This document shows, one piece after another, positions 8,469-14,521 of a stretch of 57,712 bases of DNA (position 1 is its first letter; each line of letters begins with the position of its first letter). The DNA lies in the NCBI GenBank assembly GCA_021162545.1, contig JAGGYM010000058.1:1-57712 (forward strand), given 5' to 3'. The DNA comes from Dehalococcoidia bacterium. Lineage in GTDB: Bacteria > Chloroflexota > Dehalococcoidia > GIF9 > AB-539-J10. The position numbers and the translations under genes are program-made. The notes under the pieces were generated by a model. That model was not told where the DNA came from. It worked only from the letters and a program-made list of their open reading frames with translations, and searched no databases.

Positions 8469-8486
8469 GGCTGAATGGCTCTTGTC

Positions 8487-9050
8487 CTAGGTGAAACTGA
8501 CTTTGGGCGTTTCCTTCTCGGCCGCTACCGTAATTTCAAAGAAATCATCGGCCTTGAAACCGGCCATGCCGGCTACCAGGCTGGAGGGAAATACCATGGT
8601 CTGGTTATTATATCTCAGCACGGAATCGTTGTAGTACTGACGGGAGAAGCTTATCTTATTCTCCGTCGAGGTGAGCTCTTCCTGCAGAGCCAGGAAATTC
8701 TGATTGGCCTTGAGGTCGGGGTAGCTTTCAGCTACGGCGATGAGCTTGCCCAGGGCAGCGCCCAGCTCGCTCTCGGCTCTGGAACGGACGCCCGCTCCCG
8801 AGGATGCTACCTGCTGGGCGAGATTGCGCGCCTTGGTTACGGCTTCCAGTGTCTCCCGCTCGTGTTTCATATAGCCCTTGACCGTTTCCATCAGATTGGG
8901 AATGAGGTCATGCCGTCGCTTGAGCTGTACGTCTATTTGCGCCCAGGCGTTCTTTACCTGGTTGCGCAACTTGACCAGCGCGTTGTAGAGAGCAACGAAG
9001 ATAACCGCGAGAATTACTACAATGCCACCAATTATGTAAGCTGCTAACAC
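8487..9050 (-). CDS. lemA: LemA family protein
   Basis: N-terminal TM, YNALV, AWAQIDVQLKRRHDLIPNL, ESYPDLKAN, YYND. Confidence 0.95.
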   Translation of the reverse strand: MLAAYIIGGIVVILAVIFVALYNALVKLRNQVKNAWAQIDVQLKRRHDLIPNLMETVKGYMKHERETLEAVTKARNLAQQVASSGAGVRSRAESELGAALGKLIAVAESYPDLKANQNFLALQEELTSTENKISFSRQYYNDSVLRYNNQTMVFPSSLVAGMAGFKADDFFEITVAAEKETPKVSFT

Positions 9051-9119
9051 TAAACACCTCCCTGAGAGTTCGCCTGTAATTTGCTTAAGGGATATTTCTC
9101 CAATGTTCTCCCACCTGAA

Positions 9120-9542
9120 CTATTCCTGTGCATGGAACACCTCTCCGAGGAAATTGATGATCTTCTGTGGCTCATTTTGTTCTTTTCCCGGACTCTTCAC
9201 CAGATGTTTTAGTAACTGCGCCAGCTCCCCACCATCAAACCAGAGCCCATCACCCCTGTCACAAACATCGATGAGCGTTCCAGGTTCCTTGCCCAGAATC
9301 GTCTTCTTCATTCTATGTCCACAGATAGGGCAACGGCGCTTCTTCTCCGATGATATCGCTTCAGGGAACTTGATGATTTCCGCAAGGCAAAGGCCGTGTC
9401 CTGCTATCTCCAGGGATTGCAGCATCAGCGCCAGCTCCCCTGCATCGAACCACACCCCACCACAGTCAAGGCAGTGATCGAGCTCGATGTCCTTGTACTC
9501 AACCACTATCATGTCGCTTTTACAGACAGGGCATATCATCAC
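9120..9542 (-). CDS. Double zf-TFIIB-like zinc-ribbon protein
   Basis: CPVC...LDHCLDCGGVWFDAGEL, repeated as CPIC...IDVCDRGDGLWFDGGEL. Confidence 0.85.
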   Translation of the reverse strand: MMICPVCKSDMIVVEYKDIELDHCLDCGGVWFDAGELALMLQSLEIAGHGLCLAEIIKFPEAISSEKKRRCPICGHRMKKTILGKEPGTLIDVCDRGDGLWFDGGELAQLLKHLVKSPGKEQNEPQKIINFLGEVFHAQE

Positions 9543-9668
9543 AATCCATCCTCACAGGTGATTGCCGATAGTTTATGGCCTACTGGGAAGGGGTGTCAAG
9601 TAAATTGTTTAACCAGAGAATCTTCCTAAGGAGATGCCTGCTTATCAAGTCCATGAATTGTATATTTC

Positions 9669-9697
9669 TTGACAGAGTTAAGCTGTTTGGCTAGAAT
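9669..9697 (+). promoter_or_regulatory. Sigma70-type promoter, leader copy 1
   Basis: TTGACA-17 bp-TAGAAT; the same arrangement is present in copy 2. Confidence 0.75.
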
Positions 9698-9770
9698 GAA
9701 ACCCTCGCCAGTTCAGGATGGGGTGGTTGTTCTGGACACCGGGGCAGAAATAAAATAAAAGGAGGATTTT

Positions 9771-9821
9771 ATGCTACGTGGGTGTGGTGTGTGTGGATGG
9801 GATAGCAATGCTTGCGGGTAA
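9771..9821 (+). CDS. Putative Cys-rich leader peptide uORF1, copy 1 (MLRGCGVCGWDSNACG)
   Basis: Strong AAGGAGG SD 5 nt before the ATG; same length and Cys/Trp positions as copy 2. Confidence 0.65.
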   Translation: MLRGCGVCGWDSNACG

Positions 9822-9863
9822 CGAATTATTTCTCAGCTTCTCATTGCCAGTAGAGTATCTGTT

Positions 9864-9962
9864 ATGCAATTTTTAATCTGCTCCAAACCTGCCAGGGACC
9901 CTGATTTCCCATCGTTCTCTTCCTTTCCCGTCGCATTCCCCAAATTCCTCAAGTACAGCTAG
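9864..9962 (+). CDS. Putative leader peptide uORF2, copy 1 (MQFLICSKPARDPDFPSFSSFPVAFPKFLKYS)
   Basis: 26/32 aa identical to copy 2, with three synonymous codon changes and no indels. Confidence 0.5.
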   Translation: MQFLICSKPARDPDFPSFSSFPVAFPKFLKYS

Positions 9963-9971
9963 CTGCGCCTA

Positions 9972-10006
9972 TCCCGGGGCTCATTTTTTGCCGCCGGGAA
10001 TTTTTT
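9972..10006 (+). terminator. Putative attenuator (intrinsic terminator in the leader), copy 1
   Basis: TCCCGG-GGC...GCC-G-CCGGGA stem followed by ATTTTTT, just upstream of the SBP SD. Confidence 0.6.
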
Positions 10007-10028
10007 ATCATAAATAAAGGAGGTAAGT

Positions 10029-11060
10029 ATGAAACATAAGACAAGTATCAAGGTCTTGATGGTCGTTCTGTGTGCCCTGCTGCTCCCCATGGCCATGATT
10101 GGCTGCTCTCCAGCATCGGAACCAACGCCAACGCCAACACAGGCAGGCCCCATCGTCTTTGGCGACATCAGTTGGGACAGCGCTCAGGTGCACAACCGTA
10201 TCGCCGCTTTTATCCTGGAGAATGGCTATGGCTACGAACCAGATTATATTCCTGGTGATACAGCCCCCCTGTGGATGGGTTTGGAGAAGGGTGACGTTGA
10301 CGTGATAATGGAATCCTGGACGGAAAACATACTTGAGATTTACAACAAAGCCATCGACTCTGGTGCCGCAGTCGATCTGGGGAGTAACTATCCCGACAGC
10401 GGGCAGGGGTGGTTGGTGCCCACCTACATGATTAAAGGCGACGCTGAACGCGGAATAGAGGCTACAGCTCCAGACCTCAAGACCGTTTTCGACCTGCCTC
10501 AGTACTGGGAGCTGTTCAAGGACCCGGAGGTACCTACCAAGGGGCGTTTTTTCAACTCCATCCCCGGATGGCAGTGCACCGAGATAAACAGCATCAAACT
10601 CAAGACCTATGGCCTGGATGAATCTTTCAATGACTTTCTTACCGGGTCGGGTGCAGCCCTGTCCGGTTCCATGGTCAGCGCCTATGAAAAGGGCGAGCCC
10701 TGGGTAGGATACTACTGGGAACCGACCTGGATACTGGGCAAGCTTGACATGACTTATCTGGAAGAACCGCCCTTTGACCAGTCAGAGTGGGATAACAAGA
10801 CCTATGGCTGTGCCTATAGTCCTGTCCAGGTCAACATCATCGTCAACACCGATTTTGCTGACAGCAATCCTCAGGTGGTGGAATTTCTCAGCAACTATGA
10901 GACTACCACCGCTATGGTAAACCAAGTCCTGTCCTATATGCAGGAGAACGAGGCAAGCACGAATGAAGCTGCCATCTGGTTCCTGCAGGAAAACGAAGAC
11001 CTGTGGACCAAATGGGTATCGCCAGAGGTGGCAGCCAAGGTCAAGGCTGCTCTACCATAG
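10029..11060 (+). CDS. Glycine betaine/choline-family ABC substrate-binding lipoprotein (ProX/OpuAC-like)
   Basis: Lipobox MIGC, PT linker, SWDS, MESW, GWLVPTY, PGWQC and GYYWEPTW motifs. Confidence 0.9.
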   Translation: MKHKTSIKVLMVVLCALLLPMAMIGCSPASEPTPTPTQAGPIVFGDISWDSAQVHNRIAAFILENGYGYEPDYIPGDTAPLWMGLEKGDVDVIMESWTENILEIYNKAIDSGAAVDLGSNYPDSGQGWLVPTYMIKGDAERGIEATAPDLKTVFDLPQYWELFKDPEVPTKGRFFNSIPGWQCTEINSIKLKTYGLDESFNDFLTGSGAALSGSMVSAYEKGEPWVGYYWEPTWILGKLDMTYLEEPPFDQSEWDNKTYGCAYSPVQVNIIVNTDFADSNPQVVEFLSNYETTTAMVNQVLSYMQENEASTNEAAIWFLQENEDLWTKWVSPEVAAKVKAALP

Positions 11061-11150
11061 ATGCGGGACTGACACTATAGATAAAAGTGCAACATGGTAA
11101 AGGTAAACCTCTCCTTGAGAGAGAGTTTCACCATAAGTTTGCGGACATGA

Positions 11151-11189
11151 GAGACTGTTCGGTGTTATGCCGAACAGTCTCCCTTCTTA
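11151..11189 (+). terminator. Probable terminator hairpin after SBP copy 1
   Basis: GAGACTGTTCGG...CCGAACAGTCTC 12-bp stem followed by a pyrimidine tail. Confidence 0.6.
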
Positions 11190-11384
11190 TCGAGGCGCAG
11201 CGGTGGCAGAGGATTCTTTGATGCCCATATATACCTGAAGGCAGGATGAGGCAAGTTCGTATAGAGCCTCGACTGGTCGCTTTGACAGCGATGCGCCAGA
11301 TTGGCTAAAATGAAAACCTCGTTAGTTCAGGATGGGCTGGTTGTTCCGAACACCGGGGCAGAAATAAAATAAAAGGAGGATTTT

Positions 11385-11435
11385 ATGTGGTATGTGTGTG
11401 ATGTGTGCGTGTGGTGCAGTTATACTTGCGGGTGA
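11385..11435 (+). CDS. Putative Cys-rich leader peptide uORF1, copy 2 (MWYVCDVCVWCSYTCG)
   Basis: AAGGAGG SD; C5, V7, C8, W10, S12, C15 and G16 conserved with copy 1. Confidence 0.65.
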   Translation: MWYVCDVCVWCSYTCG

Positions 11436-11477
11436 CGGGCTATTCCTCAGCCTCCCGTTATCGGTGAAGTATTCGTT

Positions 11478-11576
11478 ATGCAATTTTTAATCTGCTCCAA
11501 ACCTGTCAGGGCTCCCAATTTCCCATCGCCCGATTCCTTTCCCGTCGCATTCCCCAAGTTCCTCAAATACAACTAG
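11478..11576 (+). CDS. Putative leader peptide uORF2, copy 2 (MQFLICSKPVRAPNFPSPDSFPVAFPKFLKYN)
   Basis: Same offset from uORF1 (93 nt) and same length as copy 1; SD-like GGTGA upstream. Confidence 0.5.
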   Translation: MQFLICSKPVRAPNFPSPDSFPVAFPKFLKYN

Positions 11577-11585
11577 CTGTGCCTG

Positions 11586-11618
11586 TCCTGGGGCTTGTTT
11601 TGACGCCGGGAATTTTTT
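11586..11618 (+). terminator. Putative attenuator, copy 2
   Basis: TCCTGG...CCGGGA stem (G-U-preserving change versus copy 1) followed by ATTTTTT. Confidence 0.55.
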
Positions 11619-11640
11619 GTCATAAATAAAGGAGGTAAGT

Positions 11641-12672
11641 ATGAAACGTAAATCAAGTATCAAGACCTTGATGGTCGTTCTGTGTGCCCTGCTGCTCCCC
11701 GTGGCCATGATTGGCTGCTCATCAACGCCAGCACCAGAACCGACTCCAACGCCAACGCCGACACCAGCACAGGCAGAAACTATTGTCTTCGATGACGCCG
11801 GCTGGGACAGCATCCAGGTGCACAACCGCATCGCCGGATTTATCCTGGAGAATGGTTATGAGGGTTACAAGGCCGAGTACATACCGGGGGAGACCATCAT
11901 GCTGTTTACAGGTTTGGCTCAGGGAGACATAGATATCTGTATGGAGAGCTGGGAAGAAAACATACAGGAAGTCTATGACAAAGCCCTCGCTGCCGGAGAA
12001 ATAATCGACCTGGGCAGCAACTTCAAAGACAGCTGGCAAGGATGGCTGGTGCCCACCTACATGATTGAGAACGGTGACCTGCCAGCAGGTATGTCCGTAG
12101 AGGATTTATCCGAATACTGGGAGCTATTCAAAGACCCTGAGGACCCAACCAAGGGGCGCTTTCACAGCTGTGTACCCGGATGGGGATGCCAGGAGATAAA
12201 CACCATCAAACTTAAGAGTTACGGACTGGATGAGTACTATGTTGATTTCCTGTGTGGCTCAGGTGCAGCGCTATCCGGTTCCATGATCAGCGCCTATGAA
12301 AAGGGCGAGCCCTGGCTGGGCTACTACTGGGAACCGACCTGGGTCCTGGGCAAAGTTGACATGACTCGCCTGGAAGAGCCTCCTTATAATCAGACGACAT
12401 GGGAGACCGACAAGACTTGCGCTTATCCTGCCGCCAAGGTTAATATCGTGGTCAATGCTGACTTTGCAGACAGGGCGCCTGATGTGGTGGAATTTCTCAG
12501 CAACTATGAAACCCTCACTGCTACGAACAATGCTGTCCTGGCCTATATGCAGGAGAACGAGGCAAGTACCGAGGAGGCTGCCATTTACTTCTTGCAGGAG
12601 TATGAGGATGTGTGGACTCAGTGGGTGCCGGCGGATGTAGCCAGCAAGGTCAAGGCTGCTCTGCCCCAGTAA
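11641..12672 (+). CDS. Glycine betaine/choline-family ABC substrate-binding lipoprotein, paralog 2
   Basis: Same motifs as 10029-11060 (GWDS, MESW, PGWGC, GYYWEPTW); longer PT linker. Confidence 0.9.
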   Translation: MKRKSSIKTLMVVLCALLLPVAMIGCSSTPAPEPTPTPTPTPAQAETIVFDDAGWDSIQVHNRIAGFILENGYEGYKAEYIPGETIMLFTGLAQGDIDICMESWEENIQEVYDKALAAGEIIDLGSNFKDSWQGWLVPTYMIENGDLPAGMSVEDLSEYWELFKDPEDPTKGRFHSCVPGWGCQEINTIKLKSYGLDEYYVDFLCGSGAALSGSMISAYEKGEPWLGYYWEPTWVLGKVDMTRLEEPPYNQTTWETDKTCAYPAAKVNIVVNADFADRAPDVVEFLSNYETLTATNNAVLAYMQENEASTEEAAIYFLQEYEDVWTQWVPADVASKVKAALPQ

Positions 12673-12751
12673 TTGCATACGACAGTAAACAGGTAATGTA
12701 TAGAGGATACTCCTCCCCTGTGGAGAGCAGAGTTATCCCTGTGACTTAGAG

Positions 12752-12790
12752 AAAGGCTGCACGGCTTTAGCCGTGCAGCCTTTTTTCTTC
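12752..12790 (+). terminator. Intrinsic terminator (possibly bidirectional)
   Basis: AAAGGCTGCACGGC-TTTA-GCCGTGCAGCCTTT plus T-run, between convergent genes. Confidence 0.85.
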
Positions 12791-12912
12791 GTGGAAGATG
12801 CTCAATAAATACCTGCACCGTCGCGAATGCAAAAGAGATGCTTGAGTTTACATAATAATTTAATGGTGCCTCAGTAAAGCCGTCTGCGCTGAGGTCACCA
12901 TGAAAGTCAATG

Positions 12913-14214
12913 CTACTCCCCTGAGTGAACGGGGTTCAGCTTGCGGGGGGCTACCAGCCACATGAGCACAGCAGCTGCAATGAGGCAGCACAGGAATATG
13001 ATAAAAGCTATGGCGTAGCTGCCGGTCCTGTCGTAAAGGAATCCCGCCAGCCAGGGGCTGATGGCACCTCCCAGGGCGAAGCCCATGACGATAAATCCCT
13101 GGATGGAGCCGAAATGCTTTCCGTGGAACAGGTCCGCCACCACAGCGTAGAAGATGGGCCCTGTGGCGCCGAAACTCAGGCCGCTGCAGATGGCAAAAAG
13201 GAAGGGCATCCATGGTTGGGAAGTGTCCTTTATCAGAAACAGCAAAATTGAAGATGCTGCGCCCAGGAGACAGGCCGGTATGAATATCTTTTCCCTTCCC
13301 ACGCGGTCTGAGAGAGGGCTGCAAAAGGTGCCGGCGACAAAGGCGATGCCAAATGAGCTGTAGATGGTAGCAGCCGTCATGGAGTCGTACCCGGCATCCT
13401 TGAAGAAGTAAACCTGGTGCGCTACCGCTATTTGCTGCGCCATGCCCAGGAGAAGGAAAGCCGTCAGGAAAAGCAACCAGAACTGGCGGGTTTTCAGTGC
13501 TCGCAGCAGCGTCCATCCTGTCCTGTTCCATGTTTCCTCTCCACTCGCTGTGAACTGAAGTGCGCCATGAGCTTCCCTTTCATCCGCTGCCCGTGGCGCC
13601 GCCTCCGGCATGCCATCCGCTAAAAGCCCCTTGTCGCGGGGGCTGCGTCGCATAAAGATGGCGCAGGCGGGTGCGATGATAACGATAACGGCAATTCCTA
13701 TCATGATGTAGGCGTTCCGCCAGCCGAAGCTGGAAATCAGGAACTGGGAGAGGTAGGCAAATACCATGCTGCCACCGAAGGCGGCTCCCAGGATGCCAAA
13801 GGCCAGGCCGCGCTTTTTTACAAACCAGTTGGCTACTATAGAGGTCATGGGATTCCACCCCGTTACGCTCATCCCTATGGCCACCATAATTCCATAGAGA
13901 AGGTAAAATTGCCACTGAGTTGTAGCCATGCTGCATAGCATGACGCCTGCCCCCGTGATGACAGCGCCTACTGTCAGAACCACTCTTGGATTAAATTTAT
14001 CTATCAGGATGCCCACTACCGGTGCGCTCAGTCCATAGACCAGGACGGCCAGGGAGAACATCACCGCCGTGTCTCCTCTTCCCCAGCCGAATTCCTCCAC
14101 GATGGCAGGATAAAATACCGAAAAGGAATTTCTGACGGCATAGCTGAGAATTATAGCGATGAAGGCCACTACCAGAATGACCCAGCCATAGAAGATGCCC
14201 CGTCCGTTGTTCAT
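12913..14214 (-). CDS. MFS transporter (oxalate/formate antiporter-like)
   Basis: IFYGW, GILIDKFNPR, NWFVKKRGLA and SDRVGR motifs; about 12 TM. Confidence 0.9.
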   Translation of the reverse strand: MNNGRGIFYGWVILVVAFIAIILSYAVRNSFSVFYPAIVEEFGWGRGDTAVMFSLAVLVYGLSAPVVGILIDKFNPRVVLTVGAVITGAGVMLCSMATTQWQFYLLYGIMVAIGMSVTGWNPMTSIVANWFVKKRGLAFGILGAAFGGSMVFAYLSQFLISSFGWRNAYIMIGIAVIVIIAPACAIFMRRSPRDKGLLADGMPEAAPRAADEREAHGALQFTASGEETWNRTGWTLLRALKTRQFWLLFLTAFLLLGMAQQIAVAHQVYFFKDAGYDSMTAATIYSSFGIAFVAGTFCSPLSDRVGREKIFIPACLLGAASSILLFLIKDTSQPWMPFLFAICSGLSFGATGPIFYAVVADLFHGKHFGSIQGFIVMGFALGGAISPWLAGFLYDRTGSYAIAFIIFLCCLIAAAVLMWLVAPRKLNPVHSGE

Positions 14215-14521
14215 TTTCTTCTCTCTATTACCCCGCAGCTCCGGTGATGCAGCGAATATCCTACAGGGAAGGAACAACAGCTACCACCGGCGCGAAACCT
14301 GCAACCCTTTCCCTTTTTCCCTGGGAAACACAATTGTAGCGCAATCCACCCCATGAGATACAGGTCGCAGCAGGCAAAATTATAGTTTGCTAATTTCTGT
14401 AGCCTCTTCCCGCATGTGTAATTTCCGACTCTGGGATATAATTAGGGACGAAACATGCCAGGAAAAGGTTATTCTGATGTAGTGCCATGCGGGTAAATAT
14501 TCTTTAATTGAAGGTGAACAG

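Follow-up and report, generated by a model that had tools for sequence, protein, structure and literature searches.

A conserved short-ORF leader upstream of OpuA-type uptake genes in a family of Dehalococcoidia: a candidate ribosome-mediated transcription attenuator

Introduction

What controls the two genes for OpuAC/ProX-type substrate-binding proteins (SBPs) that stand in tandem in the genome of an uncultured Dehalococcoidales bacterium? Uptake of compatible solutes is usually ascribed to control by osmolarity-sensing proteins or by cyclic di-AMP (c-di-AMP), including its riboswitch. The two genes lie on contig JAGGYM010000058.1, of which positions 1 to 57,712 were analyzed and are hereafter referred to as the window; the genome as a whole (assembly GCA_021162545.1) comprises 1.39 Mb and is 99.8% complete. 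The genes form two monocistronic units, A and then B, each equipped with its own promoter and with a leader of about 360 bp. In a first-pass annotation of the sequence these leaders had been proposed to act as attenuators with two leader peptides.

Here we address what these leaders are, how far they are conserved and how they may work. We find that they belong to a real and conserved leader family, which is apparently undescribed and whose mechanistic kind is known; its mode of operation is read here from sequence only. Most likely, the translation state of the leader would switch the SBP gene on and off. Whether this is achieved by a ribosome-mediated transcription attenuator with two leader open reading frames (ORFs), representing a genus-specific elaboration of a short-ORF leader common to OpuA-type uptake genes of the family, we regard as an even call.

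Results

The two leaders of the window are built alike. In both, a promoter is followed by a 5' hairpin, a strong Shine-Dalgarno (SD) sequence, an upstream ORF of 16 codons (uORF1), a second hairpin (H2), a further upstream ORF of 32 codons (uORF2), a putative terminator with U-run (T2) and finally the SD of the SBP gene (Table 1). Every element of the leader that the annotation had listed at 9669-10028 and again at 11282-11640 was found where it had been placed. The hairpin between the uORFs was likewise recovered: it holds the uORF1 stop codon, ends 5 nt before the ATG of uORF2, which in copy A is located 93 nt past the ATG of uORF1, and its pairing is kept in all three sequences that were compared (see below). 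The promoters of A and B are the two best of 7 matches in the region 9400-12900, each with 11 of 12 positions matching. At the level of sequence, two features of attenuators of the trp, his or pyrBI kind are present, namely a leader ORF with its own SD and a predicted factor-independent terminator ahead of the gene. Both target proteins match PF04069 (E 4e-60 and 4e-56). Their scores fall under the equivalog cut-offs for ProX and for choline binders, and their closest relative of solved structure is a glycine betaine/proline binder.

Conservation of the leader was assessed across the family to which the bacterium belongs. SBP orthologues were found in 28 of 119 family genomes (E <= 1e-60), and the counts given below cover the full set of 26 non-identical upstream regions from this search that span 250 nt or more, with regions cut by contig ends, runs of N, operon-internal genes and exact duplicates having been dropped. 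At 23 of these 26 loci, a strong SD and a start codon open an ORF of at most 23 codons about 200-260 nt ahead of the SBP ATG, and in 17 of the 26 this mini-ORF comprises exactly six codons and ends with TGA. The uORF1 noted in the annotation is the local version of this family-wide short ORF. Seven extra leaders, obtained from a metagenome scan and a pattern search and picked by eye or motif, bring the total to 33; they were left out of the counts above because they had been chosen by the feature itself. Among all 33 leaders, 20 carry the six-codon ORF and nine an ORF of other length (3, 10, 16-17 or 23 codons). TGA is the stop codon in 20 out of 20 six-codon forms; tnaC is also TGA-dependent. 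A TTGACA-type promoter is present 300-385 nt upstream of the SBP ATG in 28 of the 33 leaders, and the overall layout is kept across at least six genera.

Several features argue that the mini-ORF is translated. Its peptides are conserved within genera (MGKPDT/MGEPDT/MGKEYT; M-[GRV]-[ED]-x-F-T; MGGIL[RK]), and the codons vary synonymously, with Gly encoded by GGT, GGA or GGG, Thr by ACG, ACC or ACT, and Phe by TTT or TTC. Pairwise differences at the first, second and third codon position amount to 9/3/13 in genus g14, 99/83/136 in genus g17 and 3/7/8 in a third genus. The distance between SD and start codon is 10 nt, which equals the spacing in the SBP genes of g17. Translation is therefore suggested by a length that is fixed across genera despite unrelated inner codons, by the coding-like variation and by the gene-like start spacing. 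A search with the motif of the SD region matched 35 of 119 genomes, with a reversed-pattern control also matching often; all inspected extra sites were located in coding regions, except for one further SBP leader. Two other SBP loci of Dehalococcoidia (L019 and L085) carry long pyrimidine-rich leaders with a very short, SD-less ORF at the predicted transcript start, which possibly corresponds to the mini-ORF in a leaderless form.

Comparison with the family suggests that uORF1 of the window is the same element as the mini-ORF, but begins earlier, contains a GU-rich insertion and has lost the ancestral TGA, with a new stop two codons further on. The annotation had described uORF1 as Cys-rich, which does not hold as a conserved property: there are three Cys codons in copy A and five in copy B, but none in uORF1 of a congener. 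An attenuator that senses Cys was rejected on this ground. Nor was a run of regulatory codons found elsewhere, as the Cys codons of uORF1 are gone in the congener and no codon run is conserved in uORF2 across six leaders of the genus. The uORF1 peptides of A and B differ widely; in other genera the hexapeptide patterns are conserved within the genus. Residues 5-8 of uORF1 form a C-x-x-C pair in both copies (9783-9794 and 11397-11408), which is probably a by-product of the GU repeat, since the congener lacks this pair. A CXXC motif is named in the copper-responsive leader peptide CruR (PMC12360218). Pairing of the uORF1 region with the C/U tract downstream, considered as an evolved interaction, was rejected as evidence because it does not exceed that of shuffled sequences.

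Known RNA families do not account for the leader. The annotation had not recognized it as a described element, and in agreement Rfam returned no match for the whole window at the gathering threshold. When the leaders were searched at E values up to 10, the only match was osmY (13.4 bits, opposite strand, E 9.7), which we take as noise, and there was no match in 11 related leader-bearing loci or in the loci of the ATPase operon treated below. Among 20 related loci, Rfam detected the c-di-AMP riboswitch in four Firmicute-type loci, plus one tRNA. This riboswitch, RF00379, precedes orthologous SBP genes of Syntrophomonas type (L007:1185-1319, L012:4-135, L028:1-106 and L088:560-703; 67.8-84.2 bits). 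It thus occupies the same leader position before the same OpuAC-type kind of SBP, but the window leaders share no similarity with it. RF00379 is absent from the window, both at gathering and at E up to 10, and from the genome, whereas the control loci match. Likewise, no gene with the DAC domain of c-di-AMP cyclases was found in the genome, and this domain was not found in 54 of 56 family genomes of at least 90% completeness, including all searched from leader-bearing genera; the two exceptions belong to a genus for which the SBP query gave no ortholog (E <= 1e-60). A riboswitch aptamer was considered and dropped, as RNAalifold yielded one weak helix from 13 leaders of g17. In our literature searches no such leader was described for opuA-type genes or in Dehalococcoidia.

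Structure was compared in three sequences, i.e. leaders A and B and the leader of a congener, which is 74% identical to the window type. H2 comprises 16 pairs, and 95.8% of the 48 cells are paired, with seven one-sided changes and one two-sided change. Its pairing is retained though it is located in the least conserved stretch of the leader. The terminator that the annotation had predicted ahead of the SBP gene is supported as a hairpin followed by T6, and it covaries with the congener. T2 has predicted energies of -16.9 (A), -10.7 (B) and -11.8 kcal/mol (congener) and is accompanied by a U-run; its stem differs in the congener, with 88.9% of the cells paired and one two-sided change. A candidate long-range helix (9741-9748 / 9877-9884) shows one compensatory change. 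Taken together, H2, T2 and this helix have a score that is reached by 8 of 500 column shuffles, and we consider the covariation signal of the three helices only suggestive. A relative from brine, described below, retains the T2 stem and its distance from the stop codon. Four genera of lower GC content share a T-rich run some 28 nt upstream of the SBP ATG, with stems that differ; this run was not seen in the GC-rich g17. In a contig close to another congener, uORF1 has three codons and its stop abuts a 9-bp hairpin with a subsequent U-run (z -5.15); this hairpin is, to judge by its sequence, a plain ribosome-sensitive terminator.

Folding under constraints was used to ask where a ribosome could interfere with T2. 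In A, B and the congener alike, T2 was present when the RNA was left free, when uORF1 was masked and when a ribosome was placed at the uORF1 stop; only a ribosome at the stop of uORF2 removed it. The annotation had further proposed that a conserved TTCCCG within uORF2 pairs with the 3' arm of the terminator as an antiterminator. This holds in part. When the uORF2 stop is occupied by a ribosome, the freed 3' arm pairs in copy B exactly at 11539-11543 and in the congener at a stretch overlapping the element; its partner in copy A is 9739-9742, and the TTCCCG pairing arises only when the 5' arm of T2 is masked. As to Rho-dependent termination, the genome encodes Rho (RNA-binding domain 110 bits, open frame of 443 aa). 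A tract richer in C than in G follows the short ORF in most leaders and in the window lies inside uORF2 (31-33 C versus 9 G per 80 nt).

Is uORF2 translated? Its conservation is borne out within the genus and fails outside it. In all six leaders of the genus that were examined, the ATG resides in a shared motif of 8 nt and the frame stays open for 29-48 codons; it is the longest of the three frames in five of the six, with the alternatives mostly reaching a stop within 0-13 codons. The four SBP leaders of the genus all carry an ATG ORF of 24 codons or more whose end lies 40-90 nt upstream of the gene. The frame ends 7-9 nt before, within, or just past the last hairpin. Alignment of A and B confirmed the absence of indels between the uORF1 ATG and the uORF2 stop, and inside uORF2 the indel between window and congener is -9 nt. 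For the ATPase-operon leaders of the own genome and of a congener, the alignment reads as a 3-nt in-frame insertion plus a -1/+1 pair after which the frame is regained. On the other side stand a missing SD, a missing codon-position bias and the scarcity of such ORFs in other genera, for which the figures are given in the Discussion. We put the chance that uORF2 is translated at about one half.

The two copies were also compared with each other. Leaders A and B share 83% identity over 342 nt (E 2.7e-98), and BLAST returned only these two in the own genome. Similarity begins sharply at the -35 box. In windows of 60 nt, identity is for the most part 0.78-0.92; it is 0.92 over the 5' hairpin and SD1, declines to a minimum of 0.63-0.72 at uORF1 and the hairpin after it, and reaches 0.82-0.90 from the uORF2 start through the terminator into the signal-peptide codons. 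The mature parts of the SBPs are far more diverged than the leaders (dS, i.e. synonymous divergence, 1.09; ratio of nonsynonymous to synonymous divergence, dN/dS, 0.18). Since the leaders are more alike than the genes that they precede, they appear to be either constrained at the nucleotide level or homogenized by gene conversion, and the latter has to be considered because the tract of high identity extends into the signal-peptide codons. No further close copy matching a profile of A, B and the congener was found in scans of the genome collection (30 loci) and of metagenomes (46 loci). A contig from a brine metagenome, about 88% alike (over 9995-10207 and 11356-11579), combines a copy-B-like 5' part of the leader with a copy-A-like terminator and SBP start; this mosaic suggests a single-copy relative or recombination between units A and B.

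A third leader was noticed on another contig of the same genome (C39; L141:2716-3139, minus strand), before an unlinked operon for an OpuA-type ATPase (ABC_tran and CBS domains) and permease. It consists of a TTGACA promoter, an SD block, a 10-bp hairpin with U-rich tail (z -5.59) and a long pyrimidine/GU hairpin followed by T8, and it shares with leaders A and B a motif of 8 nt around an ATG; an open frame runs through its terminator. Other genera of the family have the ATPase gene immediately downstream of the SBP gene (e.g. G063:C19, G010:C5, G033:C82 and G001:C21). In the own genome, the ATPase/permease operon resides on another contig than the two SBP genes, and all have leaders of their own. 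We conclude from this arrangement that the operon was split in this genome, and the transporter appears to be distributed over three transcription units, each with a leader of this build.

The features of the two units are compiled in Table 1. The general terminator scan had a loop limit of 8 nt and omitted the T2 hairpins because their loops exceed this limit; both were obtained from a separate scan and from the folds. Outside the genus, the 5' hairpin of leader A lacks sequence conservation. Directly 5' of leader A, two ORFs of 190 and 124 aa (8475-9047 and 9103-9477) have no match in Pfam or NCBIfam, and a promoter-like site on the minus strand (9599-9570) is directed away from the leader. 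On the other side, a gene for a major facilitator superfamily transporter of the monocarboxylate / oxalate-formate kind (12913-14277, minus strand) is convergent with SBP gene B.

Table 1. Features of the two SBP units in the window.
Feature	Position	Strand	Details
Promoter, leader A	9669-9697	+	-35 TTGACA 9669-9674, 17-nt spacer, -10 TAGAAT 9692-9697; 11/12 matches
5' hairpin, leader A	9711-9737	+	In minimum free energy folds; within the best-conserved A/B stretch (0.92)
SD1 of uORF1, leader A	9759-9765	+	AAGGAGG; SD-like element at the same relative site family-wide
uORF1, leader A	9771-9821	+	16 codons + TAA; putative local extended form of the family mini-ORF
Hairpin H2, leader A	9808-9858	+	Arms 9808-9824 / 9841-9858; encloses the uORF1 stop
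uORF2, leader A	9864-9962	+	32 codons + TAG; no SD; ATG within conserved block YYGTTATG
C-rich, G-poor tract, possible Rho loading site	9871-9950	+	31 C, 9 G in 80 nt
TTCCCG, potential partner of the terminator 3' arm	9925-9930	+	Constraint folds
Terminator T2, leader A	9972-10006	+	Stem 9972-9980 / 9990-9999, T6 10001-10006; 9 nt past the uORF2 TAG
SD2 and SBP gene A (OpuAC/ProX-type lipoprotein)	10017-11060	+	AAGGAGG 10017-10023, ATG 10029
Terminator at the end of the SBP-A unit	11151-11181	+	14-bp stem; terminator scan
Promoter, leader B	11282-11311	+	11/12 matches
SD1 and uORF1, leader B	11373-11435	+	16 codons + TGA; sequence
Hairpin H2, leader B	11422-11472	+	-18.7 kcal/mol, z -2.52
uORF2, leader B	11478-11576	+	32 codons + TAG; sequence, frame comparison in the genus
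Terminator T2, leader B	11586-11618	+	Stem 11586-11591 / 11606-11611, T6 11613-11618
SD2 and SBP gene B (OpuAC/ProX-type)	11629-12672	+	Gene proper 11641-12672

Discussion

A two-ORF attenuator would work as follows. Ribosomes translating uORF1 would melt H2, and melting would free the SD-less start of uORF2. A ribosome approaching the end of uORF2 would cover the first bases of the 5' arm of T2, so that RNA polymerase reads into the SBP gene, and translation of uORF2 may in addition shield the C-rich tract from Rho. If the leader is not translated, T2 would end the transcript near 10006 and 11618, possibly together with Rho. The role of H2 is suggested by its position: intact H2 would block a ribosome at the uORF2 start, because its 3' arm sits 6-23 nt before the ATG, and a ribosome completing uORF1 would open it. 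As the route via T2 and the route via Rho act alike, leader translation is predicted to promote read-through.

A number of observations weigh against this proposal and keep our judgment of it at an even call. Regarding the short ORF, three of the 26 loci keep an SD-like element without a start codon, and four of the 33 leaders have no such ORF. The third leader also lacks it, as its SD is not followed by an ATG or GTG at a suitable distance; it was moreover missed in its own genome by the profile built from leaders A, B and the congener, and since this profile does not detect it, its kinship rests on layout and short motifs. Regarding uORF2, the ORF has no SD, a comparable ORF was found in no more than 4 of the 29 leaders from other genera, and the homologous site reads ACG there in place of ATG. 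Over the three codon positions, A and B differ by 3/5/4 (70/49/140 in the SBP genes as control), and dN/dS is 0.5, which is not the lowest of the three frames. The chance of 32 open codons is roughly estimated at 0.46, with low A and G content favoring open frames. Regarding structure, the statistics derive from three related sequences only. H2 is hardly more stable than expected in copy A (z -0.17, compared to -2.52 in B and -2.28 in the congener), T2 scores weakly in B and the congener (z -1.31 and -1.37, compared to -3.13 in A), and folding of the whole leader is no better than that of shuffles (z +1.29 and +0.60). Likewise, the duplex that the uORF1 region could form with the pyrimidine-rich tract does no better than dinucleotide shuffles (fractions 0.19, 0.51 and 0.32). 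Masking of uORF1 alone leaves T2 unchanged in the folds, and the C>G tract ranks only among the top 5-6% of random genome segments.

Some of these observations would be explained by an attenuator with a single ORF, which we consider possible, if rather unlikely. Here, only uORF1 would be translated and would remodel H2, thereby controlling loading of Rho on the C-rich tract and/or formation of T2, and uORF2 would be an incidental frame in a pyrimidine-rich spacer. Such a view accords with the short ORF being the sole feature conserved across genera, with uORF2 lacking SD and coding signal and being absent from most genera, and with the presence of Rho and of a C>G tract after the short ORF in most leaders. 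The conserved 5' block of uORF2 then has to be an RNA element, i.e. the U-rich tail of H2 as a degenerate first terminator, or one strand of a long-range helix. Around the uORF2 ATG, the sequence does resemble the U-rich tail that follows the hairpin in the congener-like and ATPase-operon leaders, and the candidate helix has its one compensatory change. However, H2 would be a poor terminator because the U-tract after it is interrupted, and by inspection the long-range helix was not seen in the other leaders of the genus. T2 stays intact in the folds when uORF1 is masked, and the uORF2 frame is open from a conserved ATG in 6/6 genus leaders, where the other frames mostly stop early.

The remaining explanations dispense with attenuation. 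STAB-SD elements and the hbs leader of Bacillus subtilis bind a ribosome or 30S subunit, which protects the mRNA from 5' exonuclease. A stabilizer of this type, in which the 5'-proximal SD with or without the tiny ORF guards the leader and T2 is leaky or constitutive, appears improbable. It would suit the four leaders that keep an SD-like element without usable start, the third leader with an SD block but no ATG or GTG ORF, and the distance of the SD element from the predicted transcript start (within about 60-100 nt), but the exact length of six codons, the TGA and the synonymous variation argue that translation and peptide matter, and an unregulated terminator directly before the SBP SD would be wasteful. 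We attribute an equally low probability to an RNA that senses a ligand or a protein, i.e. a new riboswitch or an RNA recognized by an RNA-binding protein, whose expression platform would consist of the SD-like sequence and the pyrimidine-rich motifs resembling an anti-SD. Specificity of the leader for one transporter regulon, its location at the position taken by the c-di-AMP riboswitch in orthologous genes, and pyrimidine-rich motifs able to pair with either SD point in this direction. Against it, nothing beyond SD and short ORF is conserved across genera in sequence or structure, the 13 g17 leaders gave a single weak helix, folding of the whole leader does not exceed that of shuffles, and Rfam gave no match. 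Most improbable of all is the absence of any dedicated regulation, with a long 5' untranslated region duplicated and kept alike by gene conversion and with incidental ORFs and hairpins. Identity of A and B that runs into the signal-peptide codons fits a conversion tract, but the layout is kept in at least six genera and in the congener at 74% identity, and the stems covary.

How does the proposed two-ORF attenuator relate to known systems? In attenuators with coupled translation, such as pyrBI and ampC, a ribosome that reaches the terminator region prevents formation of the hairpin. The leader of the ATPase operon resembles this kind in that an open frame runs through the terminator, whereas uORF2 of the window stops 9 nt before the stem.

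The annotation had stated that leader-peptide attenuators normally use one uORF, but leaders with two ORFs are already on record, namely for mgtCBR of Salmonella, where tandem attenuators with the short ORFs mgtM and mgtP are reported (PMC3641672). There, mgtP is rich in proline codons, and a section heading states that hyperosmotic stress promotes mgtCBR expression. The window leaders are similar in being long and in having two short ORFs each placed beside a stem-loop, with the uORF1 stop in H2 and the uORF2 end 9 nt before T2; in both systems, translation of the ORFs is expected to select the stem-loops that form and thereby the fate of the transcript, and uORF2 with its 5-6 Pro codons is reminiscent of mgtP. 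However, mgtM and mgtP respond independently and additively, unlike the cascade envisaged here; termination at mgtCBR is linked to Rho (PMC12360218), as compared to a clear predicted intrinsic terminator in the window leaders; and mgtCBR belongs to Mg2+ and virulence genes of a different phylum, the target in the window being an osmoprotectant transporter.

A review treats uORF-dependent Rho attenuation at tnaC, speFL, mgtL, corL and cruR (PMC12360218). The family leaders share with these a short uORF and a spacer of about 200 nt that possibly loads Rho ahead of the gene, but the sensor peptides covered there comprise 17-34 residues, compared to six in the mini-ORF, and in the window uORF1 stops with TAA (A) or TGA (B) and is combined with a predicted intrinsic terminator. 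EPDP is given as an intrinsic ribosome destabilization motif of MgtL in PMC11282234. The mini-ORFs MGEPDT and MGKPDT at L071 and the g14 loci L036 and L039 resemble this motif, and the third residue in g17 is acidic; this is a matter of resemblance only, and uORF1 of the window, unlike MgtL, is without an EPDP-like motif. The window leader would share the logic of mgtCBR, of the Rho-attenuation uORFs and of MgtL without being a member of these groups by descent, and it differs in lineage, target, hexapeptide-sized ancestral ORF and in occupying a position that holds a c-di-AMP riboswitch in other bacteria.

As to the input, our best guess is the osmotic or ionic state, or the supply of aminoacyl-tRNA, acting on leader translation. 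A further-reaching idea, which we hold to be doubtful, is that the six-codon ORF of the family (M-G-E-x-F-T, M-G-K-P-D-T or M-G-G-I-L-R/K, ending with TGA) is a new ribosome-borne sensor. The nascent hexapeptide would tie termination or ribosome stability to the ionic or compatible-solute state and would replace the c-di-AMP riboswitch in the control of OpuA-type uptake wherever Dehalococcoidales have lost c-di-AMP signaling, and the genus of the window would have elaborated a two-ORF cascade and copied it onto all three transporter units.

The leader offers a testable cis-element of about 340 nt with an ORF of 6 to 17 codons, in a group about whose gene regulation hardly anything has been described. 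The natural series from one-ORF to two-ORF leaders shows how attenuators gain complexity. Finally, a conserved and putatively translated leader before genes of this kind, in a widespread subsurface lineage that mostly lacks a c-di-AMP cyclase, would represent a different solution to the same control problem.

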